The position numbers were made by a program, and so were the translations under genes. The notes beneath the pieces were generated by a model. It was not told the origin of the DNA and did no database searches. It saw nothing but the letters and a program-made list of their open reading frames with translations. 39,834 nucleotides of DNA from Gemmatimonadales bacterium (GTDB lineage: Bacteria > Gemmatimonadota > Gemmatimonadetes > Gemmatimonadales > GWC2-71-9): positions 1 through 39,834 of the forward strand of contig JBBSPX010000003.1 in assembly GCA_038258395.1 (NCBI GenBank). The letters are read 5' to 3'. The stretch's first letter is position 1. Each line of letters opens with the position of its first letter. Below, in pieces: positions 7,039-37,487 of the stretch.

Positions 7039-7081
7039 CGCCGTGTGCCGCGGTCGGAACGTCGGGCGTGCACCGCGCCTC

Positions 7082-8056
7082 CTAGCGCTGCGCCGGATTG
7101 GCGCGTTGCTCAGTCAGCACGTCCTCGATGATCTTGGACAACGGGGTCTCCGGACGGAAGTCGATCATCGCCTTCAGGCGACTGAGATCCGGTATCCGGC
7201 GATGCATGTCCTCGAACCCCTCCGCGTACGCCTCTGAGTAGGGTACGAGCACAATCGGTGACTTGCTCCCCACGGCATCACGCACCATCTCGGCCAACTC
7301 CATCATCGAGACTTCCTCATCCGACCCGATGTTGAATACCCCGCCGATCGCCTTCGGGTTGCCGAGCAGCCGGAGCAGTGCCTCCACCGCATCTTGAACG
7401 TGACCGAAGCAGCGCTGTTGATCACCGGTGCCATACACCGTGATCGGTTCGCCGGCGAGCGCCTGGCGAACAAAATTTGGCAGCACCATGCCGTAGCGGC
7501 CGGTCTGCCGCGGGCCCACCGTGTTGAAGAATCGCACGATGATGACGGGGACTCCCTTTTCCCGCATGTAGGCCAGCCCGAGCCACTCATCGAGCGCCTT
7601 TGAGCAGGCATATGCCCAACGAGAATGTGTGGTCGGACCGAGTTGGAGATCGCCATCTTCTCGGAACGGGAGGCTGGCACTCTTGCCGTAGACTTCGGAG
7701 GTGGAGGCAATGAGCACCAGTTTCTGCTTCTTCGCGGCCGCGGCGAGGACGACTTCGCTGGCCTTGACGTTGGTCTCGATCGTGTGGACTGGACGCTCGA
7801 CAATCAACCGCACGCCGACCGCCGCCGCGAGGTGAATGGTCACGTCGCAGCGATCCACGCACTCGGAAACCAGCGGGACATCGAGGGCCGAACCAATGCG
7901 ATAGGTGAACCCGGGCCGATCGACGAGGTGGGCGATGTTGTCCATGCTACCAGTCGAGAGATCATCGAGCACCAGGACCTCGTCCCCCCGGTCGATCAAC
8001 CGCGTGGCGAGATGTGAGCCGATGAATCCTGCGCCGCCGGTGATGAGGTACCGCAT
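7082..8056 (-). CDS. NAD-dependent NDP-sugar epimerase/dehydratase (extended SDR)
   Basis: TGGAGFIGSH, HLAAAVGV, STSEVYG, YACSK and RFFNTVGPRQ. Confidence 0.92.
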   Translation of the reverse strand: MRYLITGGAGFIGSHLATRLIDRGDEVLVLDDLSTGSMDNIAHLVDRPGFTYRIGSALDVPLVSECVDRCDVTIHLAAAVGVRLIVERPVHTIETNVKASEVVLAAAAKKQKLVLIASTSEVYGKSASLPFREDGDLQLGPTTHSRWAYACSKALDEWLGLAYMREKGVPVIIVRFFNTVGPRQTGRYGMVLPNFVRQALAGEPITVYGTGDQQRCFGHVQDAVEALLRLLGNPKAIGGVFNIGSDEEVSMMELAEMVRDAVGSKSPIVLVPYSEAYAEGFEDMHRRIPDLSRLKAMIDFRPETPLSKIIEDVLTEQRANPAQR

Positions 8057-8064
8057 GTCCGTCC

Positions 8065-9315
8065 TCAGGAGAGGGTTGTGTGTACTCGCGAGGCCTGCCG
8101 AGTGGCCGCAGCCGCCCGCACGATCTCAAGATATCTCGGGACCACGGTCCGCTCCGACCAGAGGGACTCCAGGGCCCGTCGACCGGCCTGCGCCAGGCGG
8201 GTCCGATACGGCTGGTCATGCAGGAGCCGCGCCATCGACGCCTCCAGCTCCGTTCGGTCACGGAAGCTCTCACCACCCCCCGAGGCCTCGAGCAACTCGG
8301 GCAGGGGCCCGAGGTGACGGGCGATCACCGGGGTCGACTGCCGGAACGCCTCCAGGAGGATGATCCCGAACGTCTCATAGCACAGCGACGGTACCAAGAG
8401 GGCCACGGCCCCGCGGTACCATCTCGCCAATTCGGCACTGGGAACGCGGCCGAGGAAGCGGACGCGCGGATTGCCTCCTGCCTGTGCGCGCAACGTCGCG
8501 CCGTATTCACCATCGCCCGCCACGACGAGATCGGTCGGCCCCTCACCCTCGAAGGAGGGCAGGACATCCTGGAGTCCCTTGATCAACTCCAACCGACCAA
8601 CAAAGAGGAAGTAGGGGCGCGCTTGCGCCACCCCTTCCTCGACGTACGGTGCTTCCGCCTCCGTCTCAGGCAGGAAGTACGGCAGCACGTCCATCTCCCG
8701 GGGGAAGCCGAACTCCCGGTGCTTGTCGCGGCTGAACTCGCTCATCGCGATGAATCGGTCGATGTGACGCAGGTTGCGCTCGAGGAGCCCGGTCCAACGC
8801 CACCACTGGGGCGGACGGCGGTAGTGCAATTGACAACTCAGGCACTGGCGCCCCGTGCACACTTCCCGTCCCTTGCGCCAGAGGACGTGGGTCGGGCAGA
8901 CCAGCCAGTGTTCGTGCGCCATGTACAACTTGACCGCGTCGCCGTACGCGAAGAGCCCGGGACCGCCGATCAGCGAGACATTGTGAAAATTGATGACGTC
9001 GAATTGCCGCTCGTCGAGCAGGCGCCTGATCCGCCGACCGTTGATGATCGGTCGACCGGTCTGTTGCGTGAGCAGCGGCGAGAGCGCGCCGAGGCCGCTG
9101 CGCAATGAGATGACCTCAAGTCCCGCTGGCTCAGGCTCGCCCACCGGAGGCGGGCCATTCGCGAGTGCTTCATACGCGTCAAGGTCATGGATGACCGTCA
9201 CCTGATGTCCGGCGTGGACCAGCCCTCGCGCAAGGCGCTGGATCCCGATGCCGTCACCGCCAAAGTTGTAGGGCGGATAGAAGGTGGTGAGGAACCCGAA
9301 ACGAAGTCCGCTCAT
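8065..9315 (-). CDS. Glycosyltransferase family 4
   Basis: FYPPYNFGG, VGRL...KG and ETFGIILLEA (EX7E motif). Confidence 0.9.
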   Translation of the reverse strand: MSGLRFGFLTTFYPPYNFGGDGIGIQRLARGLVHAGHQVTVIHDLDAYEALANGPPPVGEPEPAGLEVISLRSGLGALSPLLTQQTGRPIINGRRIRRLLDERQFDVINFHNVSLIGGPGLFAYGDAVKLYMAHEHWLVCPTHVLWRKGREVCTGRQCLSCQLHYRRPPQWWRWTGLLERNLRHIDRFIAMSEFSRDKHREFGFPREMDVLPYFLPETEAEAPYVEEGVAQARPYFLFVGRLELIKGLQDVLPSFEGEGPTDLVVAGDGEYGATLRAQAGGNPRVRFLGRVPSAELARWYRGAVALLVPSLCYETFGIILLEAFRQSTPVIARHLGPLPELLEASGGGESFRDRTELEASMARLLHDQPYRTRLAQAGRRALESLWSERTVVPRYLEIVRAAAATRQASRVHTTLS

Positions 9316-10505
9316 CCGGCCGCCTCGCGCAGCGCGGCAAGCGCGTTGCGCGCGCTGTCGTCCCAGGTAAGCGCGTGCGCCCGCTCGCGGGCGCGGCGAC
9401 CCATGCTGCGCCGTGCGATCTCATCCGTCATCATCCGCTCGAGCGCGTCGGCCAGCGCGCGCTCATCGCCCGGTGCCACGAAGATCCCGCCGCCCTCGAG
9501 CAGCTGGGGCAGTGGACTGGCGGTCGTCGCAACCACCGGGGTCCCCGTCGCAGCTCCCTCGACAGGCGGAAGGCCGAAACCCTCGGACGCGGAGGGAAGC
9601 ACGACCGCGAGGGCCCCCGCGAGCAAGTCGCGGACGTCCTCGTCCGGCAGGAATCCCGTCCAGTGCACCAGCTCGGCGGTGCCGCACACTTCGATGGCAT
9701 TCGCGATCGTGGCCTGATCGCCATGGAAGGCGTCCCCGGCACGCGCACCGATCAGGAGGAGGTGGACTGGCGCGTCACTCGCGTGTGCCGTGCTCGCGTG
9801 CGCCCGCACCAGAATGTCGACGTGTTTGTGGGGACCGAAGCCTCCGACATAGGCAAACCACCGGGCACCGTCGGGCAGGCCGGCCGCGCGCGCCGCACGA
9901 CGGACTGCCTCGGCCGGCGGCGCGGTGCGATACAACTCCGCTGGTGCCAGCGGAGCCACCCGGATTCGGGCAGCCGACAACCGGTGCACGTCGGCGATCT
10001 CCTGCGCCGCATAGTCGGAGATCGTCAACACGAGGCGCGCCTGCCGAAGCGCGAGGGCCACCTTGGCCCGCCAGAAAAGCCGGGCCCGCCACGAGGGAAT
10101 GGTCAGCTCAGGGAATCGCTCGACGATCGCGTCCATCACCGTCACGACCGCGGGAAGCCCTAGCGGCAGCGGGAAGTAGGTGTAGACCGTCGGCGAAAAG
10201 AAGACATCCGGCCGGTGCCGCGCGACGGCCTGGGTGAAGCGAAGCATATCGAATGGGGAACGCGAGGAATCGGCGGCGGCGGCCGTCGTGGGCGAGACGC
10301 GCTGCGGCACCAGGATTGTCCGGACGTTGGGCGCATCGAGTGAGAAAACGGCCGCCGCACGCGCGTCAAGAAAGCAGACGAATTCGTCATCAGGTGCCTC
10401 GCGCACCATGGCTGACACCAACTCGCGTGTGAAGCGGCCGTACCCGCGAGCATTGGCCCAGCAGGTCGCGTCGATGCCGATACGAAGACTCACGTCGCGA
10501 GCCAC
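9312..10505 (-). CDS. Glycosyltransferase family 4
   Basis: RIGIDA...GYGRFT and PSASEGFGLPPVEG (EX7E motif). 4-bp overlap with the downstream GT4. Confidence 0.9.
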   Translation of the reverse strand: MARDVSLRIGIDATCWANARGYGRFTRELVSAMVREAPDDEFVCFLDARAAAVFSLDAPNVRTILVPQRVSPTTAAAADSSRSPFDMLRFTQAVARHRPDVFFSPTVYTYFPLPLGLPAVVTVMDAIVERFPELTIPSWRARLFWRAKVALALRQARLVLTISDYAAQEIADVHRLSAARIRVAPLAPAELYRTAPPAEAVRRAARAAGLPDGARWFAYVGGFGPHKHVDILVRAHASTAHASDAPVHLLLIGARAGDAFHGDQATIANAIEVCGTAELVHWTGFLPDEDVRDLLAGALAVVLPSASEGFGLPPVEGAATGTPVVATTASPLPQLLEGGGIFVAPGDERALADALERMMTDEIARRSMGRRARERAHALTWDDSARNALAALREAAG

Positions 10506-10651
10506 CCCGAAAGCCCGACGGGTTGCCAGGGACCGGGCCCAGCCACGTGCAACGGGTGACTCAAGTGTGGTATTCCTGCGACAGTCATGTGGTTCCTGGT
10601 GTGGTAGCGCAACAGGGGCCGAGAAGAGGCCTCAGGCTCCGGGCAGAGTCG

Positions 10652-10667
10652 AGCATCTTCCGTGCCC
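10652..10667 (-). promoter_or_regulatory. Putative sigma54 -24/-12 promoter for the GT4-GT4-epimerase-ArnT operon
   Basis: Minus strand GGGCACGGAAGATGCT = GG-N10-GC with GGCACG, but ATGC instead of TTGC. Confidence 0.4.
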
Positions 10668-10687
10668 TCCCCACACGATGCGCGACG

Positions 10688-10703
10688 AGGCACTCGGATT
10701 GCA
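10688..10703 (+). promoter_or_regulatory. Putative sigma54 promoter for the FkbM gene
   Basis: AGGCACTCGGATTGCA matches GGCAC-N5-TTGCA, about 110 bp before ATG 10812. Confidence 0.55.
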
Positions 10704-10811
10704 GGAAGTGTATCCTTCAAACTTCACTTGTCCTCATGCGCCCCCTTCCGATGCCGGCCCGACCGCATTCGCTGTCCCGGGCCAAACCCGATCCCTCCGG
10801 TGCCCCTCTTG

Positions 10812-11609
10812 ATGAAACGCCTCCATCGGCTCATGGAATTGGGCTTTCTGGCCCGACATCACGCCTCCGGCCCTGCGGGTGTGGCCGCATTGCTGTCCTG
10901 CTACGCCAAGACGTTCGGCGACCCGATGAGCACGGCCGAGGTCATCCTGCCTCTCCGGGCGGGTGACGCGCGACGCCACGTGGTGATGCGCGCCTGCGAT
11001 ATCTACACGATTGCGGAGGTGTTCCACGAACGGCAATACCAGCTGTCTCGCCGGCTGGGACCGGCACCCGTGATCGTGGACGCGGGAGCGAATATCGGAG
11101 TTGCTTCCACCTGGTTTCTGATGGCGCACCCGGATGCCACCCTGCTGGCCGTCGAACCGGTGTCCGAGAATTTCGGATGGCTCTCCCGAAACCTCAGCGG
11201 AGATCCCCGGGCCACAGTGGTCCAGGCCGCGCTCGGGGCGGAGGAAGCCACTGTCCTGATGGCGCTCTCACTGCACGGTGCCGAGCATGCGGTGGGAACC
11301 GCACCCGGGGTCGCGGGGAGCGAGCCGGTCGAATGCCGGCGGCTCGACCGCCTCCTTGCGGAGCACGCCATCACGCACATCGATCTCCTGAAGCTTGATG
11401 TCGAGGGGAGCGAGCTCGCCGCACTCGCCGGGCTCGGGAGCCGAATCGACCAAGTCGGCGCCATCGTCGCCGAGGTCCATGAGCGGCAAATCGACGTCGA
11501 GGCCTTCTACGCAATGCTGGCAGACCACCACTTCACGGTCGTCCGTCGAAAGTATTATCGTGAGGGAGAGGCGAGCGGGGTCCACACGGTCGAGGCGTGG
11601 CAGGAGTAG
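10812..11609 (+). CDS. FkbM family methyltransferase
   Basis: IVDAGANIG, AVEP and IDLLKLDVEGSE. Start trimmed to ATG 10812. Confidence 0.88.
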   Translation: MKRLHRLMELGFLARHHASGPAGVAALLSCYAKTFGDPMSTAEVILPLRAGDARRHVVMRACDIYTIAEVFHERQYQLSRRLGPAPVIVDAGANIGVASTWFLMAHPDATLLAVEPVSENFGWLSRNLSGDPRATVVQAALGAEEATVLMALSLHGAEHAVGTAPGVAGSEPVECRRLDRLLAEHAITHIDLLKLDVEGSELAALAGLGSRIDQVGAIVAEVHERQIDVEAFYAMLADHHFTVVRRKYYREGEASGVHTVEAWQE

Positions 11610-11629
11610 CCACACCATCGAAAATGCAG

Positions 11630-11645
11630 TGGCATGGGCGTTGCG
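11630..11645 (+). promoter_or_regulatory. Putative sigma54 promoter for the DsrE-like/beta-propeller operon
   Basis: TGGCATGGGCGTTGCG = TGGCAY-N5-TTGC, followed by an AGGAG RBS at 11691-11695. Confidence 0.6.
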
Positions 11646-11701
11646 GCGCTCGCTTGGCATACGCAACCATTGTCCCTTGGCCAAATACAGAGGAGTAGAT
11701 C

Positions 11702-12337
11702 ATGATGGAACGCCGTCGCGTGTTGGGAATGGCCCTCGCTGGGCTGGCTGGCGCCAGCCTCCCTCGTCCGCTGCACGCCGCCGCGTCTGGTCCCCTCGGA
11801 GCAGACGACTGGCTCGAATTTATCGCAGGGAAGGACTACCGCGCTTTCCTCGACATCCGCAGCTTTGCCCCGGATGGAACGCCCTTCCGGAAGGCCGCGA
11901 ACCTGTTGCGCGCCCTCGTCGAGGCGTTCGGCGCCAAGCCGGATCAGGTGGGTATCGCCTTCGGGGCAGGCTCCTCCTCGATCGCCCACGTGTTGGGCCC
12001 GAAGGTCTGGGCTGAGTACGGCGTCGGCCGCATGGTAGCGGGTCTCGCACGCACTCCAGCCGAGGCAACCTCACTGCGGGATGAACCGGCGAAGTGGGCC
12101 GCCACGGGAGGCGAGGCCGTCGCCACGATGCGCTCGGCGGGGATGCGCGTCCTTGCCTGCCGAAACTCCATCGGCCACTGGGCTCAGGCATTCGCCGCTG
12201 AATCCGGAGAGACACCCGAGGCCGTCAACGCCAAGCTTATCGCCGGGCTTCACGCCGGCGTCGAGCCGGTCCCCGCGATGATCGCGGCGGCCGTGCTCGC
12301 ACAGCGACGCGATCTGTCGTACGTCGCGATCGGGTGA
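11702..12337 (+). CDS. Tat-exported DsrE-like (sulfur-relay fold) protein
   Basis: ERRRVL plus hydrophobic stretch plus LHA cleavage site. Single Cys in LACRNS and C-terminal VPAM...LAQ...SYV typical of DsrE/COG1416-like proteins. Confidence 0.65.
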   Translation: MMERRRVLGMALAGLAGASLPRPLHAAASGPLGADDWLEFIAGKDYRAFLDIRSFAPDGTPFRKAANLLRALVEAFGAKPDQVGIAFGAGSSSIAHVLGPKVWAEYGVGRMVAGLARTPAEATSLRDEPAKWAATGGEAVATMRSAGMRVLACRNSIGHWAQAFAAESGETPEAVNAKLIAGLHAGVEPVPAMIAAAVLAQRRDLSYVAIG

Positions 12338-14313
12338 GAGTGGAGCCTGGGTCAGAGCTGACGCCGTCACCTGTGCAGCCTGAATCCAGGTCCGCCATGA
12401 CACGTGCGGTGGACCGGATTGCGCTCGGACTGACGATCGTGGCCGCGGTATTCATGGCGTTCCGCCAACCACCGCCCGACTTCCAGGACATGCTGCCGGT
12501 TGGCCCCGCGGTCTCAGTGTTCTTTCTGCTTCTCGGCGGAGTCCTCTGGATCGCTTTCCTGCAGCTGGGGAAAGCCGGTCCGGGCCGGTCGCACCCATGG
12601 TTGCCGCGACTCATGTTGTATGGGGCTGCAGCGGTGCTGGCCGGGATGCTCGGAACCCGCGTGGCGATTCAGGTGCACCAGCGATGGGACCCGGAGGTAT
12701 GGCCGCCGGGCTTCTCGCAGGCGCGGTCAGTTACCGTCAATGACCTGACCGCAGTCGAACGGGCCACGTGGGCGATATGGTTGGCGCTGCATGCCGCCGG
12801 CGACTCCGTCCGCGCAGACGAGATCCCCGCTATCCCGGCCGACTGGCCATTTCCGGACGACGTACGGCTTGCGATCCGCGGCGGCGAGACCAAAGCACCC
12901 GAATTGGTGGCGGTAACCGGTCGTGGAAACGCAGTGTGCCATGCGATCCTGAGCGCGGATCCCGGGGATTCGATTGAGGCCGTTCGCCTCGAGCCAATCT
13001 GCGACGAGCAGCCAGATGCGGCGTCAGTCCTTGACGCCAAGACCCCGGTTCGATCACACCTCGTGACTGCCGTCGCGGCGCCGACAGGACGCCATGGATC
13101 GTGGTCCCAACATCGGAAGGACGCGGCCCGGTCCGCCGAAGCCGATTCGTCCGGTACCGCGGTCGAGGGATGGCGGGTGCGGGTGCCCACTCCCATCCGG
13201 GCCAGCCTTTCGGTGGTGGACGACCTCGTGCTGGTTGGTGGCCACCTCACGGGATTGGTTGCGGCCCTCGACCGAGACACCGGTGCCGCACGCTGGTTCG
13301 CACGGGCACCGAACTGGATTCACCACGAACCGGTCTCGGACGGGCGGATCGTGGTCGTCGGGTTCGGCGACAAGGACGGGTCGTTTCTCGGGAGAGCGCC
13401 GTCGGGTGTTGCAGCGTTCGAGCTCGCCACGGGAAGGCGACTGTGGACCGCTTTTGACGAGAGCTCGGTGATGACCTCTCCTGTCATCCAGAACGGGATG
13501 GTGCTGTACGTCAGTGCGGCCGGAATGCTGAGGAAACGGGACGCCTCGACCGGCGCACTGATCAAGGAACTCCGCCTTCCTGGTGGGGTCATCATGGGAC
13601 CTCCGACCCTGTCCGCTGGCACACTGGTCATCAACTTGGATCCGGGAACCGTCTGCGCGGTGGAGATCGCGACCTTCGAGGAGCGCTGGTGCAGCACCTT
13701 TCCAGGACTCCGGCGCATGGGGCATGGCAGCCCCGCTATTGCCGGGCAGATGGTCGTCGTCAGCGCGGTCACGTCGATGTTTCCGCCCGGCCCCGCCGAG
13801 TTCGTGAAGTTGCCATTCATGGTCCAGGCGGCGCTTCTCCGGGCAGTGATCTTCCCCAAGTACTGGAGCGCGTCCTATTCGGGGCAGGTGTTCATGGGGC
13901 TTGACCTGGCCACCGGACGGCAACAGTGGATCAGCCGTTTTTTCGGCGTGGAACGAACGACCAAGGGGCACATGGCTGGCACTGCGACGGTCCGGAACGG
14001 TCGAGCGGCAATTGTGCTTCCCCTCGCCGACTCGATCATCGCGTTCGATCCGAATTCTGGTGCGATCGCCTGGAGCAACCCGGCGCATAGCGCCCGTGGC
14101 GCCCCGTTACTCTTCGATGACGTGGTGTTGCTTGCCGGACGGGATGGGATCATTCAGGTTCGGCGGATGACAGACGGCACTGTCACGTGCAGCCTGAAGC
14201 GGGCGGTCGGATGGGATCGCGCCGGTCCGGTGTTGGCCGGTGGCCTCGTGGTCTTCGCTGACCTCACCGGGGGTATCGAGGCGATTCCGACAGGCGAATT
14301 GCTTGGCTGTTGA
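12334..14313 (+). CDS. Membrane-anchored PQQ-like beta-propeller, tetrathionate hydrolase (TetH)-like, copy 1
   Basis: GTGA overlap with the DsrE-like stop. About 3 N-terminal TM helices, then repeated A.D..TG...W blades; blade-by-blade resemblance to TetH recalled from memory. Confidence 0.65.
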   Translation: MRVEPGSELTPSPVQPESRSAMTRAVDRIALGLTIVAAVFMAFRQPPPDFQDMLPVGPAVSVFFLLLGGVLWIAFLQLGKAGPGRSHPWLPRLMLYGAAAVLAGMLGTRVAIQVHQRWDPEVWPPGFSQARSVTVNDLTAVERATWAIWLALHAAGDSVRADEIPAIPADWPFPDDVRLAIRGGETKAPELVAVTGRGNAVCHAILSADPGDSIEAVRLEPICDEQPDAASVLDAKTPVRSHLVTAVAAPTGRHGSWSQHRKDAARSAEADSSGTAVEGWRVRVPTPIRASLSVVDDLVLVGGHLTGLVAALDRDTGAARWFARAPNWIHHEPVSDGRIVVVGFGDKDGSFLGRAPSGVAAFELATGRRLWTAFDESSVMTSPVIQNGMVLYVSAAGMLRKRDASTGALIKELRLPGGVIMGPPTLSAGTLVINLDPGTVCAVEIATFEERWCSTFPGLRRMGHGSPAIAGQMVVVSAVTSMFPPGPAEFVKLPFMVQAALLRAVIFPKYWSASYSGQVFMGLDLATGRQQWISRFFGVERTTKGHMAGTATVRNGRAAIVLPLADSIIAFDPNSGAIAWSNPAHSARGAPLLFDDVVLLAGRDGIIQVRRMTDGTVTCSLKRAVGWDRAGPVLAGGLVVFADLTGGIEAIPTGELLGC

Positions 14314-14373
14314 GCCGTCGGGTTAGAGGCTGGCCCAAGCGGAGACTAGGGTCCGCCCTGTCGCGCAGACGGG

Positions 14374-14444
14374 TACAGAGGAGTAGAGCATGATGGAACG
14401 CCGTCCCACCCTCGCCGGACTCGACGCCGGCGTCGAGCCCGTCC
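14374..14444 (+). pseudogene. Collapsed remnant of the DsrE-like gene forming the RBS and N-terminus of beta-propeller copy 2
   Basis: 14374-14405 matches 11686-11717 (31/32 nt). 14412-14444 matches 12240-12272 (29/33 nt). Confidence 0.75.
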
Positions 14445-16393
14445 AATCGACGAGATGGCCGGGGAGACTGGCGGCTATCTGGCTTGTGGGGCTGGCGCTC
14501 TTCTTCGCCTTCCGCGAGCCGGCCTGGGGCAAGTACGACCCGCTCCCCACCGGGATCATTCCCGGCGCCTGGTACCTCCTGATCGCGGCACTCCTGCTCG
14601 CCACGCTGCGCCATGCCGCGCGAACGACCCTCGTCACGCGGTGGCTACTTCGCACGACCGTCTTGATGGTGACGCTCCTGTTGACGGCGATGGGTTGGAC
14701 ACGGATCCGCCTCGCCCGTGAGGTGAACGCGTCAACCAACGAGTGGCCACCGCGTCCGGAGCGGATCGGTTCCGTCGATATCGACACGCTCACACCGTGG
14801 CAACGTGCGGAATGGGGCGCGAGGATCGGGGGGCATGTGGCGGTGGACCGTGGTCGCCTCGCGTTGCCAATAAGCATTCCGCCAGAGTGGCCACTTCCGA
14901 AGGACGTCGAATTTGCGGTTCGCGAACGGGGCCCTCAGGAATTTGAGATCTGGTCGCGGGTGAGCGATGGCACCGCGGTCTGCCAATCCATCCTGCTCGG
15001 CGCGAACATCGTGGTCGACAGTATTTCGCGGAATCAACGGTGCCGTGACGCCCGCCGTGCACCGCCGGAACTGCATTTCAATGCACCTCAGCGGATCTCC
15101 GAGGCGCGCACAGTCGCTCCGAGCGACGAGCCCCGACCAGCTTGGACTCAATACCGGGCCGACGCTGCCAGGACCGCAAGCCGGGACGGTACGGTTGGCG
15201 GTCCGCCTGCCAGCGGTTGGCGCACGGTGCTCGATGGGCGCATCCGGGCCAGCGCCAGTGTCGCAGGCGACTTGGTTCTGGTGGGTGGGCACGGCACGGG
15301 GAGCCTGACCGCACTCGATCGATCCTCTGGAGCGGTCCGGTGGATCGCCCGCGTCCCAAACTGGGTTCATCAGGACCCCGTCACCGACGGTCGCGTCGTG
15401 GTGGTCGGCTTTGGGGACAATGAGGGATCATTCTCCAGTTGGGCGCCCTCGGGGGTCGCCGCGTACGACCTCGCCACCGGATCGAGACTGTGGACGGGTT
15501 TCGACGAGGGCTCCGTCATGACCAGCCCGATCATTCACGATTCGGTGATCGTCTATGGCAGCGGTGCAGGTCAACTTCGACAGCGATCGCTCGCGAGCGG
15601 GACGCTCCTGATCGACAGGATGCTGCCGGGTCCTGTGACGATGGCACCACCGGTGGCCATCGGCGACACGGTCGTATTCAGCCTCGATTACGGGATGGCA
15701 TGCGCCCTCCTGATCGAGACGCTCCAACCACTCTGGTGCCAAGAAATTTCCGACCTCCGGAAACTCGGGCATTCGTCCCCGACAGTTGCTGGTGACAGGG
15801 TGTTTCTGAGCGGAGTCGCGACGGTCCGGTCGCCATCCCTTGGAGAGTTCCGTCATCTCGGGCGTGGTCTGCAGTGGCGACTGGTCAAGTCCGCGCTCTT
15901 TCCCGGCAAGTACGAGGTGTATGCCGGGCAAGTCTTCCTTGCGCTCGACCTGCACGACGGGCACCAAGTCTGGCGAAGCAAGCTCTTCGCGCTCTCACGC
16001 GATATCGCCGGGCACACGTCCGGCACCGCGACGGTCGAGGACTCCATCGGCGTGGTGGTCCTTCCGGTCGCAGACACCATGGTAGCCTTCTCGACCCACT
16101 CCGGAGTCACGCGCTGGACTGCCAGCGGCCACGCGGCACGCGGCCCCCCATTGATCCTGAACCATCGTCTGGTGATCGCCGGGCGCGACGGCGTCATCGA
16201 GGTGCGGGACCTGGACGATGGCGCACTGCGGTGCACCATACGGCGACCGGTTGGGTGGGACCGGGCCGGACCAATCGTGGCCGGCGGCCTCGTGATCTTC
16301 GCTAACCTGGACGGGGAAATCGAGGCGATCCCGACAGGAGACTTGCTTGGCTGTCGAGCCACCGCGTCAGAGGTCGGCCCGGGCGGAGACTAG
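14390..16393 (+). CDS. Membrane-anchored PQQ-like beta-propeller, TetH-like, copy 2
   Basis: Clear paralog of copy 1 (NW.H..PV.DGR.VVVGFGD, SVMTSP, VGWDRAGP, IEAIPTG). AGGAG RBS. Confidence 0.65.
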   Translation: MMERRPTLAGLDAGVEPVQSTRWPGRLAAIWLVGLALFFAFREPAWGKYDPLPTGIIPGAWYLLIAALLLATLRHAARTTLVTRWLLRTTVLMVTLLLTAMGWTRIRLAREVNASTNEWPPRPERIGSVDIDTLTPWQRAEWGARIGGHVAVDRGRLALPISIPPEWPLPKDVEFAVRERGPQEFEIWSRVSDGTAVCQSILLGANIVVDSISRNQRCRDARRAPPELHFNAPQRISEARTVAPSDEPRPAWTQYRADAARTASRDGTVGGPPASGWRTVLDGRIRASASVAGDLVLVGGHGTGSLTALDRSSGAVRWIARVPNWVHQDPVTDGRVVVVGFGDNEGSFSSWAPSGVAAYDLATGSRLWTGFDEGSVMTSPIIHDSVIVYGSGAGQLRQRSLASGTLLIDRMLPGPVTMAPPVAIGDTVVFSLDYGMACALLIETLQPLWCQEISDLRKLGHSSPTVAGDRVFLSGVATVRSPSLGEFRHLGRGLQWRLVKSALFPGKYEVYAGQVFLALDLHDGHQVWRSKLFALSRDIAGHTSGTATVEDSIGVVVLPVADTMVAFSTHSGVTRWTASGHAARGPPLILNHRLVIAGRDGVIEVRDLDDGALRCTIRRPVGWDRAGPIVAGGLVIFANLDGEIEAIPTGDLLGCRATASEVGPGGD

Positions 16394-16402
16394 TCTCCGC
16401 CC
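16381..16402. repeat. Perfect 22-bp palindrome carrying both convergent stop codons
   Basis: GGGCGGAGACTAGTCTCCGCCC is its own reverse complement. The central CTAG holds the TAG of both genes. Confidence 0.85.
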
Positions 16403-17328
16403 TGTCGTGCTGGCTGGGGCGGCGGGACGACCGCCCGCTCGGGTGCGGTCCTTGGAAGCAGGACACGCGCTTCAGCAGGTTCGTGACCCGCTGTGGCATA
16501 CGGCACGCCATCGGGGGCACCGCCGTTGGGCCAATCCTGTGCCTTCCCCGGCAGGTCCGGCCGAGGTTGCCGATCGAGGTAGGCAGCCACGTCCCAGGCC
16601 TGCTGGTCGGTCAGGGAACCCGGCAGAGAGAGTGGCATGTTGCGCCGGACAAACGCGGCAGCCACTGCGATGCGGGCCATCGAGGCCCCGATGCTGAAGG
16701 ATCGAGGACCCCAGAGCGCCGGGGCCCTTGGGAAGGCCCCGCCTTCACCCTGCGCCCCGTGGCACACCGCACATGTCGAGGCATACACCTCGCGTCCACG
16801 CGTGCTGTCTCCCTCGAGCGTCGGGATGGCAGGGATACCCAAACTGTCTGGGGCAGCACCGCCGACCGGCACGCCCTTCGAGAGGAAGGTGAGATAGGCC
16901 ACAATGTCCTGCATCTCACGACTGTGCGACGGCAGGCTCAGCCCAGCAAGACTCCGGGTCATGCAGTAGTTGATCCGGTCCTCGACGGGGATCACCGCCC
17001 CGACACGACCCAGATATTTCGGGAAGCGTGCCACCACGCCCAACAGTGGAGCCGCGCCGATCTGCCGCCCATCCGCCAGATGACAGCTGGTGCAATTCAG
17101 CGAGCTGAGCGCAAAGTCCGGCAACGAATCGGGCGTGTTCCGCATGATCGCCTGACCACGCCGGATGGCCGCTCCAAGTTGGTCGTTCGGGATCAGCGAG
17201 TCCGCAGGCGGGGACCAGGCCAACGGGACGGCCTCGCCCGGTGTTCGTGCGCACCCTGTCAAACAGATCAGGACGAGGAGGGGCAGGAGGCGCCCCTGGG
17301 TCGAGTGTCGCAATCGGTCGACTGCCAT
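16390..17328 (-). CDS. tsdA: Thiosulfate dehydrogenase/tetrathionate reductase, diheme cytochrome c, lipoprotein
   Basis: Two CxxCH motifs (CTSCH, CAVCH), RINYCMTRS containing the catalytic Cys, PALWGPRSFSIGASMAR, NMP heme-2 ligand motif and lipobox LTGC. Confidence 0.85.
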   Translation of the reverse strand: MAVDRLRHSTQGRLLPLLVLICLTGCARTPGEAVPLAWSPPADSLIPNDQLGAAIRRGQAIMRNTPDSLPDFALSSLNCTSCHLADGRQIGAAPLLGVVARFPKYLGRVGAVIPVEDRINYCMTRSLAGLSLPSHSREMQDIVAYLTFLSKGVPVGGAAPDSLGIPAIPTLEGDSTRGREVYASTCAVCHGAQGEGGAFPRAPALWGPRSFSIGASMARIAVAAAFVRRNMPLSLPGSLTDQQAWDVAAYLDRQPRPDLPGKAQDWPNGGAPDGVPYATAGHEPAEARVLLPRTAPERAVVPPPQPARQGGD

Positions 17329-17364
17329 ACGAATAGCCCCTGTTCAGGTACAGTGGAACAGCAT

Positions 17365-17380
17365 TGCAAGCACCATGCCC
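17365..17380 (-). promoter_or_regulatory. Putative sigma54 promoter for tsdA
   Basis: Minus strand GGGCATGGTGCTTGCA = GGCAY-N5-TTGCA, about 37 bp before the ATG. Confidence 0.55.
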
Positions 17381-17417
17381 CTCTGGGTGCCCCGGCCGTC
17401 CTTGCGCCCGTGCAGGT

Positions 17418-18845
17418 TCAATCCTCCACGACATGCGTTTCGAAGTGCCGGCGATGTTCCTGCCACAACGAGGTATTGAACCCTGCCGGTTCGAGACACT
17501 CCGCCGCTGCGTACGCCATCGCCAGGGCGTGATGCGTGTTGTCGTGTGCGAACAACCCCTGCCGGCCATAGCTCAACAGCCGTGGCAGTGACTCCGCCCA
17601 CGCATCGAGCTCGGCAAACGGTCCTTCATAGCCGGTGGCGTAGATCGGATACGCCTGCTTCAGGCGGCGCACATGGATCCCGTCCGGTGCGACCGGCAAC
17701 GGAACGCCCGCCCGCGCAAGATCCTCCGCCACGAGTGCGCCAAGCGCCGCGTCGTCGAGCTTCCACCACGGGTCGTCCGGCCCGGCAGGCAACTCGGCGC
17801 AGAGCACGGTATGCCCCGGTGTTGCGCGCAGGTCGCCATAGTTCTTCGGTTCCGACAGCCGGGTGATCCGGAGGTCGGCACTGGGGAAGTAATGCGCGTC
17901 GAACTCGGTGAACTGATCGATCGGGAGCGAGAGGTACACCAACAACATGCCGCGGTACTCCATCGCGCCTGCTGCCCGCTTCACCGCGTCGGGGACATCG
18001 TCGCCGATCAGTCGTGCGAGCAGGGTGATCGGAATCGTAGACCAGAGCTGATCGGCTTCGACACGCTCGACCGCCCCGTCGTGCTCCGCCTCGATGATCC
18101 ACGGGTCACTTGCGCCGGCCGGCGGAACCAGTCTGGTCACCCGGCGGCCGTACCGGAATTCCGCGCCCAGCGCGGTGGCCGCGTCGGCATATGCCTCGCT
18201 GATCTGGCCATAACCGTGACGCGGATAGAAGAACCTCCCGGCACCGGGCGGTTTGAGGCCGGGTACGGCGTTCAGGACCTTGCGCGCCAGCTTGAGGAAC
18301 GATCCAGCCGACACGCGACGGCGGGCCTGGATGCCGGAGAGCTCCGAGGGATCACGGCCCCAGATCTTGCGCGCGTATGGAAAGTAGAAGGAATCGCAAA
18401 TCGTCGGACCGAGATTTGCCCACAGCACATCGGCAAAGGAGTCGCCTGTCGGCGGCCGACGAAACGGTTTCACCACCATGTCACGGAAGGTGCCCAGCGC
18501 GAAGCCGGGATCGAGTCGGATCAGCAGGTCCTGCGGCTTGAGCGGAAAATGAATCCAGCGACCGCGCAACCCGATGCGGCCATGACGCGGGCGGTCGAGC
18601 AGGTCGTCACCGAGGAGGTCTACGATTTCCGCCATGATCCCGGGATCGGTCGCGGGATGGAGCCGGTGACTGCCGTAGTCCACCCGCATCCCCGCGAATT
18701 CGAAGGAGCCGGCGTTGCCCCCGGGGACGGCCTGCTGCTCGAGCACAGTAACCCGCGCCCGGTCAAGCTGTCGCAATTTGAACGCGCCGCCGACGCCGGC
18801 AGGGCCGGCACCGAGAATGACGACGCGTGGCGGAGACGTACTCAT
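17418..18845 (-). CDS. FAD-dependent oxidoreductase (COG1232, NDP-sugar mutase-like)
   Basis: GAGPAG dinucleotide motif, DYGSHRLH, YARKIWG, FFYPRHGYGQI, AYPIY and GRQGLF. Confidence 0.75.
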   Translation of the reverse strand: MSTSPPRVVILGAGPAGVGGAFKLRQLDRARVTVLEQQAVPGGNAGSFEFAGMRVDYGSHRLHPATDPGIMAEIVDLLGDDLLDRPRHGRIGLRGRWIHFPLKPQDLLIRLDPGFALGTFRDMVVKPFRRPPTGDSFADVLWANLGPTICDSFYFPYARKIWGRDPSELSGIQARRRVSAGSFLKLARKVLNAVPGLKPPGAGRFFYPRHGYGQISEAYADAATALGAEFRYGRRVTRLVPPAGASDPWIIEAEHDGAVERVEADQLWSTIPITLLARLIGDDVPDAVKRAAGAMEYRGMLLVYLSLPIDQFTEFDAHYFPSADLRITRLSEPKNYGDLRATPGHTVLCAELPAGPDDPWWKLDDAALGALVAEDLARAGVPLPVAPDGIHVRRLKQAYPIYATGYEGPFAELDAWAESLPRLLSYGRQGLFAHDNTHHALAMAYAAAECLEPAGFNTSLWQEHRRHFETHVVED

Positions 18846-19810
18846 CGATCACCCACCTGAGTCGAAGCTGTGCGGGCCGGGGCAGAGCGGAAGGAGAAGG
18901 CGCGGTCGCGGCCGAGCAGCAACCACGCCGCCCCACCGAGGAGTCCCCCGGCGATCATGACGGTCTGCCACAACAGGGAACAAACGACACTGACGGCGGC
19001 CGGCACCCCGAAGGGGAGGAGGAGCGCCGCGAGACTCCCTTCCCGGACGGCAATCCCGCCGAGCGAAATCGGAACCAGCGCCGCAATCTTCGCGAGCGGC
19101 CAGACCAGGAACCAGGTCGCGTAACCAACCTCGATGCCGACACTGCGTCCGAGCCAGCTGTTGAGAAATACGAAGCCCGACTGGATCGTCAGTGACATCA
19201 GCAGTCCGAGTACTGCGATCCCCGGTCGGCGCCAGAGCGACCGCAATCCCACCAGGCCACGGCCCACAGGGCGGCGGATGCGGCGAGGCCAACGGGCGAG
19301 TGGTCGTCGGAGCAGGAAGGGAAACCCCATCGCCATCACGCCGAGTCCCACGACGATCGCGACCGTGAGCGCTTGGCCGAGCCATCCGTCCAACTGGCTC
19401 CGCGCGAGGGTCCCACCGATCACCACAAGAATGGTGAGCGCGAGCATGTCGGTGAGCCGATCCATGATGCTGCCCGAGAGGGCCGCCTCCGGTCGACGGG
19501 TGACCCGGCCCGCCATCGCCACCCGGAGCACATCGCCTCCCACGATTGTCGGGAGACAGAGATTGGCAAACAATCCCGCGCTGTAGCAGGTGATGGCATC
19601 GCGCGCTCGGAGTCCGCCCCGGGCCGCGTTGACGAAGAGTCGCCACTTGGCGACGCCCAGCAAATGCCCACCGACAAACCCCGCGAACACGCCGAGCCAC
19701 ACGCGAGGCGAGAGTCGCCCCAGTGCGTCACGCACGCCACCCCATGGCAAGATCAGAAAGAGCACAATCAGCAGTGCGACGCTGATTGTCGCCTTGAGCC
19801 AGGGTTTCAT
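18842..19810 (-). CDS. YbhN/LPG-synthase-TM family membrane protein (flippase-like)
   Basis: NLCLPTIVGGDVLR, DRLTD and PISLGGIAVRE. Confidence 0.85.
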   Translation of the reverse strand: MKPWLKATISVALLIVLFLILPWGGVRDALGRLSPRVWLGVFAGFVGGHLLGVAKWRLFVNAARGGLRARDAITCYSAGLFANLCLPTIVGGDVLRVAMAGRVTRRPEAALSGSIMDRLTDMLALTILVVIGGTLARSQLDGWLGQALTVAIVVGLGVMAMGFPFLLRRPLARWPRRIRRPVGRGLVGLRSLWRRPGIAVLGLLMSLTIQSGFVFLNSWLGRSVGIEVGYATWFLVWPLAKIAALVPISLGGIAVREGSLAALLLPFGVPAAVSVVCSLLWQTVMIAGGLLGGAAWLLLGRDRAFSFRSAPARTASTQVGDR

Positions 19811-20700
19811 CGGCGTCCGGCAATGCGAACATTCTGGTCCGCAAGGAGGCCAACGGACCAGACCACCAAGGCGCCGATGATCCCCAGGACCGCGCTCTCG
19901 GAGAGGTTGTCCCGCGTAATGTCAAAGATGAATTTCCCGACACCTGCGACAAAGAGCACCGCACCGAGCGGGAGAAAGACCTTGAGGGGATTGAAGAACA
20001 CAATGGTACGCACGATCAGAATGGTGAAGTCGTAGGCGTGCCGCGCCCGAATGCTGGATTGGCCGAGTCGCGCATGGTAATCGATCGGAACATAGACGAA
20101 CGCGTGCCCATTGCACGCCGCCGACATCGTGATGGTCGTCGTGAACGAGAAGCCGTCCGGCAACAGGAATTCGTAGCGCTGGATCAGACTCCGCCGCATC
20201 AGGCGCAGTCCACTATTGATGTCCGGCAGTCGCTGCCCGGCGAGATAGCCGGCCAGGCGATTGAGAAACCATTTGGCGGGCCGCCGGATCAGCGGAATTG
20301 CCACGTTCGCGCCGAGGCGGCCACCGATCACCATCTCATTCCGATCGGCCTCCGCGAGCAGCGACGGGATCGCTTCGACGGGATAGGTCCCGTCGGCATC
20401 CGTGATCAAGATCCAATCATACTGTGCTCGCGAGATCCCGAGCTTCAGTGCGGCTCCGTAGCCCCGGTTCTGCGGTCGGCGCAGGACCACGGCGCCCGTA
20501 AGGTCCGCCTCGGTCGCGGTGGCATCGGATGATCCATCGTCCACCACAATGACCTCGTAGGCCCAATCGGTCGCGGCAAGGGTGCGTTGCACGGCACGCA
20601 CCTGCTCCGCGACGTGATCACCCTCGTTGTAAGCGGGGATCACGACCGTCACGGCGCGCTCCAGACGCAGGGGGTCGTTCCCAGCGATCTCCTCGATCAC
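19807..20700 (-). CDS. GT2 polyprenol-phosphate glycosyltransferase (DPM1/ArnC-like)
   Basis: VVIPAYNE, VVDDGSSD, NRGYGAALK, DADGTY and two C-terminal TM helices. GTG 20700 follows GGAGG; ATG 20724 is an alternative start. Confidence 0.88.
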   Translation of the reverse strand: MIEEIAGNDPLRLERAVTVVIPAYNEGDHVAEQVRAVQRTLAATDWAYEVIVVDDGSSDATATEADLTGAVVLRRPQNRGYGAALKLGISRAQYDWILITDADGTYPVEAIPSLLAEADRNEMVIGGRLGANVAIPLIRRPAKWFLNRLAGYLAGQRLPDINSGLRLMRRSLIQRYEFLLPDGFSFTTTITMSAACNGHAFVYVPIDYHARLGQSSIRARHAYDFTILIVRTIVFFNPLKVFLPLGAVLFVAGVGKFIFDITRDNLSESAVLGIIGALVVWSVGLLADQNVRIAGRR

Positions 20701-20746
20701 GCGTTCCTCCGGGATGTTGATCATGAACCAGGTGATGGGAACTGGC

Positions 20747-20762
20747 TGCAAGGGCAATGCCG
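20747..20762 (-). promoter_or_regulatory. Putative sigma54 promoter for the GT2-YbhN-oxidoreductase operon
   Basis: Minus strand CGGCATTGCCCTTGCA = GGCAY-N5-TTGCA. Confidence 0.55.
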
Positions 20763-21038
20763 CGGCGTCCACCAAGCTAGTCTGCGGCCGGGGGCCGTGC
20801 GAGGTGGGCAGCTCACCCCGACGGGCACCGGCCTTGGGATCCCACCAGTTTCGCCTATCGGACTCCATCACTGTACCGGACCACCCGGCCGGCACGATCC
20901 ACCCCCCCGCAGGAGGCCTATCTGCCACGAGGATCCCGACGCGACCGTCCGAGTCGGCGCCAGCCAGCATGGGAGCACCCCGCGTGATCGCCGCCTTCGG
21001 GTACCTTACAGATTCCGCGCCTTGCCTCTGGAGAACGC

Positions 21039-22583
21039 ATGCCAACCCGCCCGAGCCTTGTTGCCGCCGCCACGCTCCTGCTGCTCACCGCCGCCGCCCC
21101 GATCGGTCCCGACCCGGTCGACTGGATGATGGTCGCCCGAATCCGTGAGGAAGGGCTGCAACATTCCCAGGTGATGAACTTCGAGAGTTTCATCACCGAT
21201 GTACTCGGCGCTCGGTTCACCATGTCGACCGATATGGTTCGCGCCCAGGGCTGGCTCCAGGCCGAGTTGACCCGACTCGGGCTCGTGAACGTCACCGCCG
21301 AGCCTTTCATGGAGTTCGGGGCCAGCTGGGACAACGACTTCGCATCGATGCACATGATCCAGCCCGACTATTCGCCCATGGTTGCCTACCCCGTCGCCGA
21401 AACACCCGGTACTGACGGTCCCCAGTTGGTCGAGGCAGTGATTGTCGACGTACAAACCCGCGAAGATATGGTGCGCCTGCACGGCACTCTCACCGGCAAG
21501 GCGGTACTCGTGTCGCCCCCATTGCCGATCGATGTCGCCAAGCTCGCGCGCGGTATGCCACGTCTCACCGATAGTGCGCTCGCGGCGCTCGAACACACGG
21601 TCATCCGACCGGCCCAATCGGTGAGCGCACGACGGATCCCCAACCCCGACCTGGTGAGCACCGAGGAGAAGCTCGCCTTCTACAAGGCGGAGGGCGTCGC
21701 CGCCGTGGTGCAGTGCGACGGCGGTTGGCTCGGCGCGGTGACCGGGTACGCCCGTCCCGGTGCCGCGCGCGACGGCTGGTCTCGCGCGGGCATCCTCGCC
21801 TCGCCGCCCATCGTGGTCGTGACACCTGAACACTACAATCGGATGTACCGGATCCTGCAGCGGAAGATCCCGGTCACGGTGTCGATCGATATCCGGACCC
21901 GCATTGGCACCGAACCACTCCAGGCGAAAAACATCACGGCCGAAATCCCGGGCAGCGATCTCAAGGATCAGGTCGTGATGCTTGGTGCGCACTTCGATAG
22001 TTGGCACGGCAGCCCCAACGCCAGCGACAACGCCTCGGGTGTCGCCGTCGCCCTCGAAGCGATGCGCATCCTCAAGGCGGTGGGCGCCAAGCCGCGGCGG
22101 ACGATCCGCGTGGTGCTCTGGAGCGGCGAGGAGGAGGGGCTGCTCGGGTCGCGCGCCTATGTCCGCAAGCACTTTGGTGATCCGCGTGACCCGGGGATCG
22201 GAACGACAGCCGAATATCAGAAGTTGTCGGTCTACTTCAACCAGGACTACGGCGCGGGGCAGTACCGCGGCGTCTACCTGCAGGGGAACGAGGCCGCTCG
22301 CGGCATGCTCACCGCCTGGATGGCGCCATTCCGCGATCTCGGCATGACCACCGTGTCGAATCAGAGTGTGGGGCAAACCGATCACGTCCCGTTCGACGAC
22401 ATCGGCCTGCCAGGGATCCAGTTCCTGCAGGATCACCTGCCGGCCGAGGGCGGCCATACTAACCTCGACTTCTACGACACCATTCAGGCCGACGACCTGA
22501 TGAAGAATGCCGTCATCATGGCCTCCTACGTCTGGCACGCAGCGATTGCGGATGACCTGGTGCCGCGCAAGACCCTGAGGTAG
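21039..22583 (+). CDS. Secreted M28 family metallopeptidase
   Basis: Signal peptide, GAHFDSW, DNASG, GEEEGLLGS and TDHVPF. Confidence 0.88.
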   Translation: MPTRPSLVAAATLLLLTAAAPIGPDPVDWMMVARIREEGLQHSQVMNFESFITDVLGARFTMSTDMVRAQGWLQAELTRLGLVNVTAEPFMEFGASWDNDFASMHMIQPDYSPMVAYPVAETPGTDGPQLVEAVIVDVQTREDMVRLHGTLTGKAVLVSPPLPIDVAKLARGMPRLTDSALAALEHTVIRPAQSVSARRIPNPDLVSTEEKLAFYKAEGVAAVVQCDGGWLGAVTGYARPGAARDGWSRAGILASPPIVVVTPEHYNRMYRILQRKIPVTVSIDIRTRIGTEPLQAKNITAEIPGSDLKDQVVMLGAHFDSWHGSPNASDNASGVAVALEAMRILKAVGAKPRRTIRVVLWSGEEEGLLGSRAYVRKHFGDPRDPGIGTTAEYQKLSVYFNQDYGAGQYRGVYLQGNEAARGMLTAWMAPFRDLGMTTVSNQSVGQTDHVPFDDIGLPGIQFLQDHLPAEGGHTNLDFYDTIQADDLMKNAVIMASYVWHAAIADDLVPRKTLR

Positions 22584-35826: not shown

Positions 35827-35847
35827 CTTCTCACCTCTCACTTCTCA
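35827..35847 (-). repeat. Heptamer tandem repeat (TGAGAAG) x3 starting at the hipA stop
   Basis: Minus strand TGAGAAG TGAGAGG TGAGAAG. Confidence 0.8.
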
Positions 35848-37146: not shown

Positions 37147-37487
37147 GGCTCCCCCCACTCCCACGACGGCGATGCGTCACCGTGACGAGCAGACGACGCC
37201 CGCACCCGTCGCGGCCGGCCACTCTCCCACAGTTCCACCGGACTTGGGCCCTCGTCGGGCACGAGCACATCGAGGCCCTCGACCAAATCGAGCACCCTGA
37301 GCACCCGGACCAGCGAGACGAGGCGGGGCGAGCGACCCGCCTCGATCCCTTCGAGGGTCCGCTTGGAGATCCCCGCCTGCCGAGCCACCGCGTCCTGCGT
37401 CAAGTTCCGACGGACCCGGGCCGCCGCGAGTCGCGTACCCAAGGTGTCCAGGACAGCCTGATCTGTCATCAGCTGAGTGATCTGCAT
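37143..37487 (-). CDS. XRE-family HTH antitoxin (HipB-like)
   Basis: LTQDAVARQAGISKRTLEGIEAG, C-terminal WEWG, AGGAG RBS, coupled to hipA. Confidence 0.88.
   Translation of the reverse strand: MQITQLMTDQAVLDTLGTRLAAARVRRNLTQDAVARQAGISKRTLEGIEAGRSPRLVSLVRVLRVLDLVEGLDVLVPDEGPSPVELWESGRPRRVRASSARHGDASPSWEWGEP

Follow-up and report, generated by a model that had tools for sequence, protein, structure and literature searches.

RNA polymerase carrying sigma-54 (RpoN) waits at its promoters as a closed complex until an ATP-driven enhancer-binding protein (EBP), located some 80-150 bp away, remodels it. Here we consider five sigma-54-like motifs that lie among surface glycosylation and sulfur genes in a stretch of 39,834 nucleotides (hereafter the window). 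This stretch corresponds to contig C3 of a 2.58-Mb, 241-contig metagenome-assembled genome (MAG) from the Gemmatimonadales, which has a G+C content of 66% and is 81.6% complete; its source is an uncultured soil-type bacterium. We know of no cultured or genetic model for this genus, and a literature search, judged by title, found no work on the sigma-54 regulon in Gemmatimonadetes/Gemmatimonadota. On the sequence evidence given below, we think it likely that the stretch from 10.6 to 20.8 kb is a cluster of genuine sigma-54 -24/-12 promoters, each heading its own transcription unit and the FkbM operon having two.

Three described systems are useful for comparison. The first is a general theme rather than a single locus: Francke et al. 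2011 (PMC3162934) present control of the bacterial exterior as a role of sigma-54 that recurs across phyla. Measured against that account, the window shares the GG-N10-GC core, consensus-like flanks, intergenic sites that point toward genes, and a genome that encodes rpoN and activators with the GAFTGA motif; the target types named there, namely glycosyltransferases, polysaccharide export, pili and envelope genes, also match those of this genome. The differences from the classic sigma-54 cases are that the window consists of predictions for an uncultured member of the Gemmatimonadales, that it places five sites within about 10 kb, two of them as a back-to-back pair, and that no activator adjoins them.

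The second system is the arrangement that Haft et al. 2006 (PMC1569441) describe for PEP-CTERM genes (PrsK/PrsR/PrsT), in which the gene is preceded by a sigma-54 motif and, tens of bases further upstream, by an activator motif; they found it only in Proteobacteria. As in that design, three PEP-CTERM genes of the present genome have sigma-54-like sites (C47:6083-6098(-), C30:11909-11924(+) and C84:1795-1810(+), at loci L045, L050 and L044), and these are accompanied by TGT-N12-ACA-like dyads about 80-110 bp upstream, as is the second site of the window. Unlike in the system of Haft et al., no activator here reaches the TIGR02915 cut-off, and the genes of the window do not encode PEP-CTERM proteins.

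The third is TspS/TspR of Acidithiobacillus caldus, which a review (PMC6335251) describes as a sigma-54-dependent two-component system that drives the sox-II thiosulfate-oxidation cluster through an upstream activator sequence of the TGT...ACA type, TGTCCCAAATGGGACA. Periplasmic thiosulfate metabolism under sigma-54 control, predicted in our case, and a TGT...ACA-type sequence are shared with what is described there. In A. caldus, however, the activator genes lie directly upstream and the target is Sox, whereas here the predicted targets encode TsdA and a DsrE-like protein, no activator gene is linked to them, and the dyads have the form TGT-N12-ACA. The predicted use of sigma-54 in the window is thus ordinary, since there is precedent for both surface-glycan and thiosulfate genes; what is unusual is how densely the sites are packed, that back-to-back pairs recur, and that glycosylation genes are linked to a periplasmic TsdA/DsrE-like unit.

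Sigma-54-like sites and their background

An earlier note, made from the sequence alone, had proposed five sigma-54-like promoters between genes, each directed into the next gene from about 35-150 bp upstream, and two of them back to back. All five motifs were found at their positions and strands (Table 1) with GG-N10-GC intact, and they show at most two other mismatches each to the consensus TGGCAC-N5-TTGCW. Every site points toward its gene, from 37-147 nt before the start codon, and sites 1 and 2 are divergent and separated by 20 bp. The scoring matrix was fixed before the scan; its weights and the consensus reportedly go back to Barrios et al. 1999.

The intergenic position of all five sites depends on two corrected start codons, those of the FkbM and glycosyltransferase family 2 (GT2) genes. 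For GT2, the longest open reading frame reaches 21045 and the gene caller chose GTG 20772, which would place site 5 inside the gene. In an alignment of nine orthologous loci, similarity begins at a conserved GGAGGA followed by GTG or TTG at 20700, while the DNA upstream cannot be aligned and varies in length, the nucleotide match to relatives ending at about 20712. We therefore place the GT2 start at 20700, and site 5 is intergenic.

Table 1. Sigma-54-like sites, candidate enhancer island and predicted genes in the window
Feature	Position	Strand	Sequence and score	Start codon downstream	Basis
Site 1	10652-10667	-	GGGCACGGAAGATGCT, 12.8 bits	147 nt to GTG 10505 (GT4)	
Site 2	10688-10703	+	AGGCACTCGGATTGCA, 14.6 bits, 1 consensus mismatch	109 nt to ATG 10812 (FkbM)	
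Site 3 (internal, before the DsrE-like gene)	11630-11645	+	TGGCATGGGCGTTGCG, 15.4 bits, top score of the window	57 nt to ATG 11702	
Site 4	17365-17380	-	GGGCATGGTGCTTGCA, 15.0 bits	37 nt to ATG 17328 (tsdA)	
Site 5	20747-20762	-	CGGCATTGCCCTTGCA, 13.5 bits	47 nt to GTG 20700 (GT2)	
Candidate activator-binding island, two TGT-N12-ACA-like dyads 31 bp apart	10566-10614				conservation
Operon assigned to site 1	5008-10505	-			Pfam, NCBIfam
PMT_2 / GT-C-like transferase	5008-7038	-			Pfam/NCBIfam
NAD-dependent epimerase/dehydratase	7082-8056	-			Pfam/NCBIfam
GT4	8065-9315	-			Pfam/NCBIfam
GT4 next to site 1 (GT4a; start GTG 10505)	9312-10505	-			Pfam/NCBIfam
Operon assigned to sites 2 and 3	10812-16393	+			Pfam
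FkbM methyltransferase (ATG 10812, corrected start)	10812-11609	+			Pfam
211-residue Tat-signal DsrE-like protein (ATG 11702)	11702-12337	+			predicted fold
Two PQQ_2 beta-propeller proteins	12397-14313, 14390-16393	+			Pfam
TsdA-type dihaem cytochrome c (ATG 17328), unit assigned to site 4	16390-17328	-			phmmer vs PDB
Operon assigned to site 5	17418-20700	-			Pfam, NCBIfam; start from alignment
FAD amine-oxidase-family oxidoreductase	17418-18845	-			Pfam/NCBIfam
Flippase-like LPG_synthase_TM protein	18842-19810	-			Pfam/NCBIfam
GT2, polyprenyl-phosphate-sugar-synthase-like (GTG 20700)	19807-20700	-			Pfam/NCBIfam

The earlier note had tied its proposal to a motif density above background, and this holds when matches are split by spacing, orientation and location. 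At 12 bits or more, 25 intergenic matches point toward a gene at the canonical spacing, compared with 7-13 at seven off-spacings; the corresponding figures are 3 and 4-11 for convergent intergenic matches, and 81 and 97-156 for matches in coding sequence. At 14 bits or more, 10 are observed over a background of 2-5. The loose pattern GGCAY-N5-WTGC gives a similar picture between genes, with 18 gene-ward matches and a single convergent one at N5, where other spacers yield 2-9 and 1-8, respectively, and the unweighted consensus with at most one mismatch occurs 12 times in gene-ward intergenic positions (controls 1-4) and 30 times in coding sequence (controls 52-73). Enrichment in promoter positions combined with depletion within genes is the footprint to be expected of a working sigma-54 system.

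The sites of the window are also clustered. With the GT2 start corrected, the assembly has 29 intergenic sites that score 12 bits or higher, and five of them fall in C3:10506-21038, whose 1,055 intergenic bases make up 0.49% of the 215,788 in the assembly. The expectation is 0.14 sites (Poisson P 4e-7, a post hoc value because the region was picked for its motifs; correction for about 250 regions of equal size brings it to roughly 1e-4). No other cluster in the assembly is as dense, and off-spacing matrices yield 0-1 sites there.

Several of the counts weigh against the promoter reading. When the loose pattern is counted across the genome without regard to location, it shows no enrichment (93 matches at N5 and 93-163 at other spacers from N2 to N9), an outcome that, by the refuting condition named in the earlier note, would tell against the proposal. 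Background would account for about 9, or roughly a third, of the 25 gene-ward sites that reach 12 bits, and any single site could therefore be a chance match. A de novo motif search over all intergenic GG-N10-GC sites first converged on a family of G+C-rich hairpins; once these were masked, a sigma-54-like consensus was recovered only from the N10 gene-ward set, with an information content of 12.4 that lies within the range of the controls (11.8-14.5). It might be argued from the loose-pattern counts that all five sites are chance matches in G+C-rich intergenic DNA, in a region that was, after all, chosen for its motifs. We find this hardly credible, given the excess over the expected 0.14 sites, the near absence of off-spacing matches in the same bases, the gene-ward direction of every site, and the presence of three conserved islands. 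Searches for other signals in the region were negative, which is in keeping with the sigma-54 reading: no sigma-70 consensus promoter was found in 10400-21100, where 1.2 are expected, and an Rfam scan of 10300-21200 gave no known RNA family at E values up to 1.

The hairpins are a feature of the genome in their own right. There are at least 30 G+C-rich intergenic examples of the form GCGGCC-N4-GGCCGCGG (e.g., C53:1129-1367, C67:5036-5251 and C143:1065-1205), which are probably terminators or REP-like (repetitive extragenic palindromic) elements.

Conservation of the sites among relatives

The same gene neighbourhood is present in six genomes of the genus (G006, G010, G014, G015, G018 and G020) and in two MAGs (L023 and L026), with the loci L015/L024, L016/L027 and L018/L025 being pairwise identical places. 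Conservation in orthologous intergenic regions, which the earlier note had named as a check, is seen for sites 1, 4 and 5 and only in patches for sites 2 and 3. Site 1 is retained as GGCAY-GGAAG-NTGC in all seven loci where GT4a adjoins the DsrE-like module, and it ranks second in conservation among 335 windows of 16 nt (identity 0.78 compared with 0.38). Site 4 is kept in five of seven same-genus loci and ranks second of 184 windows, while site 5 is clear in six of nine loci and ranks first of 184.

The relatives also supply points on the other side. Site 4 is missing from two of the seven same-genus loci (L014 and L025); among the nine loci compared for site 5, only the GG and GC are retained in L027 and L003, and the site is absent from L010. 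Site 3 is clear in only two of 14 other loci (L023, TGGCACAGCCGTTGCG, and L027), weak in L024, and not seen in the remaining 11. Site 2 is not conserved in position (rank 169 of 335 windows). Finally, the GGAAG spacer of site 1 is invariant, which is conservation beyond what sigma-54 needs, so that another factor may also bind there.

A somewhat unlikely alternative is that only sites 1, 4 and 5 are working promoters, and that site 2, site 3 or both are due to chance, recently gained or decaying, with the FkbM/DsrE-like operon being transcribed by other means. The low rank of site 2 and the sparse occurrence of site 3 fit such a situation, as do the loci L014 and L026, where no site of at least 8 bits precedes either the FkbM or the DsrE-like gene, and the background of roughly one third at this score. 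However, sites 2 and 3 are, together with site 4, the best matches of the window, in a score range of at least 14 bits where the observed sites outnumber the background. Moreover, a sigma-54-like site recurs before the FkbM or DsrE-like gene in L023, L027, L017, L021 and L022 at shifting positions, which looks like turnover and not absence; look-alikes of site 2 with the form GGCAY-NNCGA-TTGC precede FkbM in L027, L017 and L021, a weak one is present in L024, and none in L014. A conserved island of dyads also lies at enhancer distance from site 2 (see below). We thus regard sites 1, 4 and 5 as the most secure and sites 3 and 2 as probable, such that at least three, and probably all five, would be sigma-54 promoters.

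The arrangement of the sites in relatives bears on a further alternative. In L017, L019 and L026, tsdA and GT2 lie side by side and are read away from each other, with their sites placed back to back; the -24 and -12 blocks of these sites match and the spacer bases differ. The GT2 operon is inverted in the window relative to these loci, and both promoters have stayed with their genes. The alternative is that the motifs serve a different DNA-binding protein as operators, for instance one that reads GGCA...TGC half-sites, and are not promoters. The sigma-54 consensus is itself partly palindromic, the site-2-like motifs of several relatives (CGGCATGTCGATTGCC) are almost identical when read from either strand, and the invariant spacer of site 1 would suit an operator. 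We nevertheless judge an operator to be improbable. The five sites of the window are asymmetric and gene-ward, the orientation bias across the genome is 25 to 3, and the back-to-back pairs preserve nothing apart from the -24/-12 blocks. In addition, the base that follows TGC in sites 1 to 5 is T, A, G, A and A, respectively, and because it is never C, the sites are not GGCA-N6-TGCC palindromes.

A final argument for sigma-54 promoters rather than operators is that pilin and pilus genes are among the targets that this matrix picks out. The genes behind the other top sites of the genome encode pilins with PilM, PilB/PilT/PilC, a Poly_export protein with a sugar transferase, and a methyltransferase-GT4 pair; further targets are three PEP-CTERM proteins, a STAS-ABC unit, Lon and DoxX, and most of the targets belong to the cell surface. 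Together with the glycosylation-plus-TsdA module, the pili, polysaccharide export and PEP-CTERM proteins form the sketch of a regulon that can be tested.

In module-less genomes, homologues of GT4a (four, in L009 and L011-L013) have no upstream site of at least 8 bits; these may be paralogues. The genome G014 holds three to four copies of the FkbM/DsrE-like/beta-propeller unit (L017, L021 and L022, on its contigs C6, C8 and C2), some of them broken at contig ends.

Elsewhere in the genome of the window, sigma-54-like sites are found before lon, dnaK and grpE-dnaJ (C98:6041-6056(+), C33:18483-18498(+), C67:3284-3299(+) and C73:5222-5237(+)). The lon site has the highest score of the genome, 16.4 bits, and those on C67 and C73 are identical (CGGCACGGTGGTTGCC). 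These sites before heat-shock genes may reflect a role of sigma-54 or may be another palindromic operator. A match of 14.0 bits at C2:7449-7464(+) (L040), with TCGC in place of TTGC, stands before a small gene about 2 kb ahead of a Z1-domain ATPase, and is probably background.

Candidate enhancer and activators

A sigma-54 promoter implies an enhancer, for which the best candidate from sequence comparison is the island at 10566-10614. It is the second conserved island of the GT4a-FkbM gap, having a mean pairwise identity of 0.61 compared with 0.38 elsewhere. Its two dyads precede site 2 by 82 and 113 bp, but they also fall within the 5' leader of the transcript predicted to start from site 1. 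In L023 and L026, two relatives without site 2, the island follows GT4a and site 1, and so the promoter it serves could be either of the two. The base changes within the island are non-compensatory, which along with the lack of an Rfam match speaks for a site in the DNA rather than a hairpin in the RNA.

Similar dyads are found upstream of other sigma-54-like sites. With up to three mismatches to TGTTGC-N6-GCAACA allowed, 9 of the 42 gene-ward sites with canonical spacing have such a dyad 30-220 bp upstream, compared with 7 of 112 off-spacing controls, and the dyads are often about 80 and 105 bp from the site, including before the PEP-CTERM genes on C47 and C30. As the dyad was defined after it had been seen, these figures are a lead and not a test. 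We also considered whether the dyad might be common to all five promoters of the window, and rejected this: it occurs only beside site 2, with a weak version (three mismatches) 165 bp upstream of site 4. That no such candidate-enhancer dyads were found upstream of sites 1, 3 and 5 tells against the promoter reading.

The sigma-54 machinery itself is present, as the earlier note had supposed. The rpoN gene on C10 is complete, with AID, CBD and DBD domains and the RpoN box ARRTVAKYR, and rpoN is found in 38 of 41 genomes of the order (40 relatives and the present one), including all 27 of high quality; the tallies include G024. The genome has 11 matches to Sigma54_activat, seven of them strong, and six of the seven have GAFTGA or GSFTGA along with Walker A. 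The remaining strong match, on C11, is without both the GAFTGA-type loop and Walker A.

The note had also placed the activator outside the locus, and this is what we find: the window contains no Sigma54_activat gene, and tblastn with the seven AAA+ domains detected no activator gene in the loci of relatives L002-L033, some of which include up to 10 kb of flanking DNA. Two routes to a specific activator were tried without success. Assignment by NCBIfam left all six EBPs (on C1, C51, C84, C102, C132 and C200) below every equivalog cut-off; for TIGR02915 (PrsR), with a cut-off of 502.6 bits, the best scores are 391.7 for C84, 388.8 for C51 and 387.3 for C132. The second route, co-occurrence with the DsrE-like gene (7 of 41 genomes), covered four of the EBPs, and none of the four tracks the module: those on C132, C84 and C200 are found in 32, 39 and 37 of 41 genomes, and that on C1 only in the present one. 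Because the assembly is incomplete, the true activator may be missing from it. The proposal that the glycosylation and sulfur genes share RpoN control is hence sustained with regard to a common sigma factor, as judged from sequence, and not with regard to a single common activator.

We suggest the following scenario. RpoN holoenzyme would rest on the five sites as a closed complex and would fire only upon remodelling by a bound EBP, and the accessory module as a whole would stay off until at least one sensor, encoded at another place in the genome, became active. The dyad island is the best candidate for an enhancer at which such an EBP would bind.

A more specific scenario can be imagined, in which the block is one accessory, sigma-54-gated envelope programme that ties periplasmic thiosulfate/sulfane-sulfur chemistry to polyprenol-linked glycosylation, and that is switched by an unlinked, PrsR-like activator of PEP-CTERM genes through TGT-N12-ACA dyads. 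The sulfur part would consist of TsdA, a DsrE-like carrier exported by the twin-arginine translocation (Tat) pathway and the two beta-propellers, and the glycosylation part of GT2, the flippase-like protein, the FAD (flavin adenine dinucleotide) oxidoreductase, the epimerase, the GT-C, the GT4s and the methyltransferase. We offer this as a speculation that is unlikely as a whole; if true, it would mean that the PEP-CTERM cis-regulatory design described in Proteobacteria reaches into the Gemmatimonadota, and would link sulfur sensing with remodelling of the surface.

Gene content of the module

Genes were mapped with Pfam, NCBIfam and a crude in-house gene caller based on codon usage (2,417 genes, 91.8% coding). 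The sulfur label that the earlier note gave to part of the locus is upheld by two of its proteins. The cytochrome matches PDB entries 4wqc and 4wq7 ('Thiosulfate dehydrogenase') over residues 36-259 (phmmer E 4.9e-52), and both of its haem motifs, CTSCH and CAVCH, align with those of solved TsdA. The Cys of its NYCMTRS sequence aligns with the Cys of GDCFERS in the C(F/M)xRSL stretch, a conserved residue which we take to be the haem-1 ligand. On this sequence evidence the cytochrome is a TsdA homologue. Its gene is possibly also transcribed by read-through from the upstream operon on the same strand.

The second protein, of 211 residues, has no match in Pfam or NCBIfam, and none by sequence in PDB at E values up to 1. 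An AlphaFold2 model of it (mean predicted local distance difference test score, pLDDT, of 87) has as its top Foldseek hits 2pd2, 3pnx, 1l1s, 1jx7, 3mc3 and 2hy5, with E values of 4e-4 to 7e-2 and template modelling (TM) scores, by target, of 0.48-0.80. The predicted fold thus appears to be DsrE/DsrF-like, and Cys153, in the motif ACRN, is invariant in 15 sequences. Members of this family are always encoded beside PQQ_2 beta-propeller genes and usually beside tsdA. The gene occurs in 6 of 24 genomes of the genus and in none of 16 from other genera of the order, a patchy distribution that marks the module as accessory.

Among the glycosylation genes, GT2 resembles polyprenyl-phosphate sugar synthases and the epimerase resembles UDP-xylose (uridine diphosphate-xylose)/ArnA-type enzymes; all are below the NCBIfam equivalog cut-offs. 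The locus therefore flags a conserved neighbourhood in which sugar transfer stands beside periplasmic sulfur proteins, and which is predicted to be tightly gated. The main value of the present analysis lies in annotation and in the choice of promoters and activators for reporter work.

Two other features of the window may be mentioned. A sixth sigma-54-like match, at 27638-27653 (+) (AGGCATTTCAGTTGCT, 14.2 bits), lies inside the gene for an amino-acid permease and precedes an S15 peptidase gene at 27953 by about 300 nt; it may be due to chance, since there are 16 coding matches of at least 14 bits in the genome. At 35845-37487 (-), a gene for a HipA-like kinase and an overlapping helix-turn-helix (HipB-like) gene form a pair of the toxin-antitoxin type.

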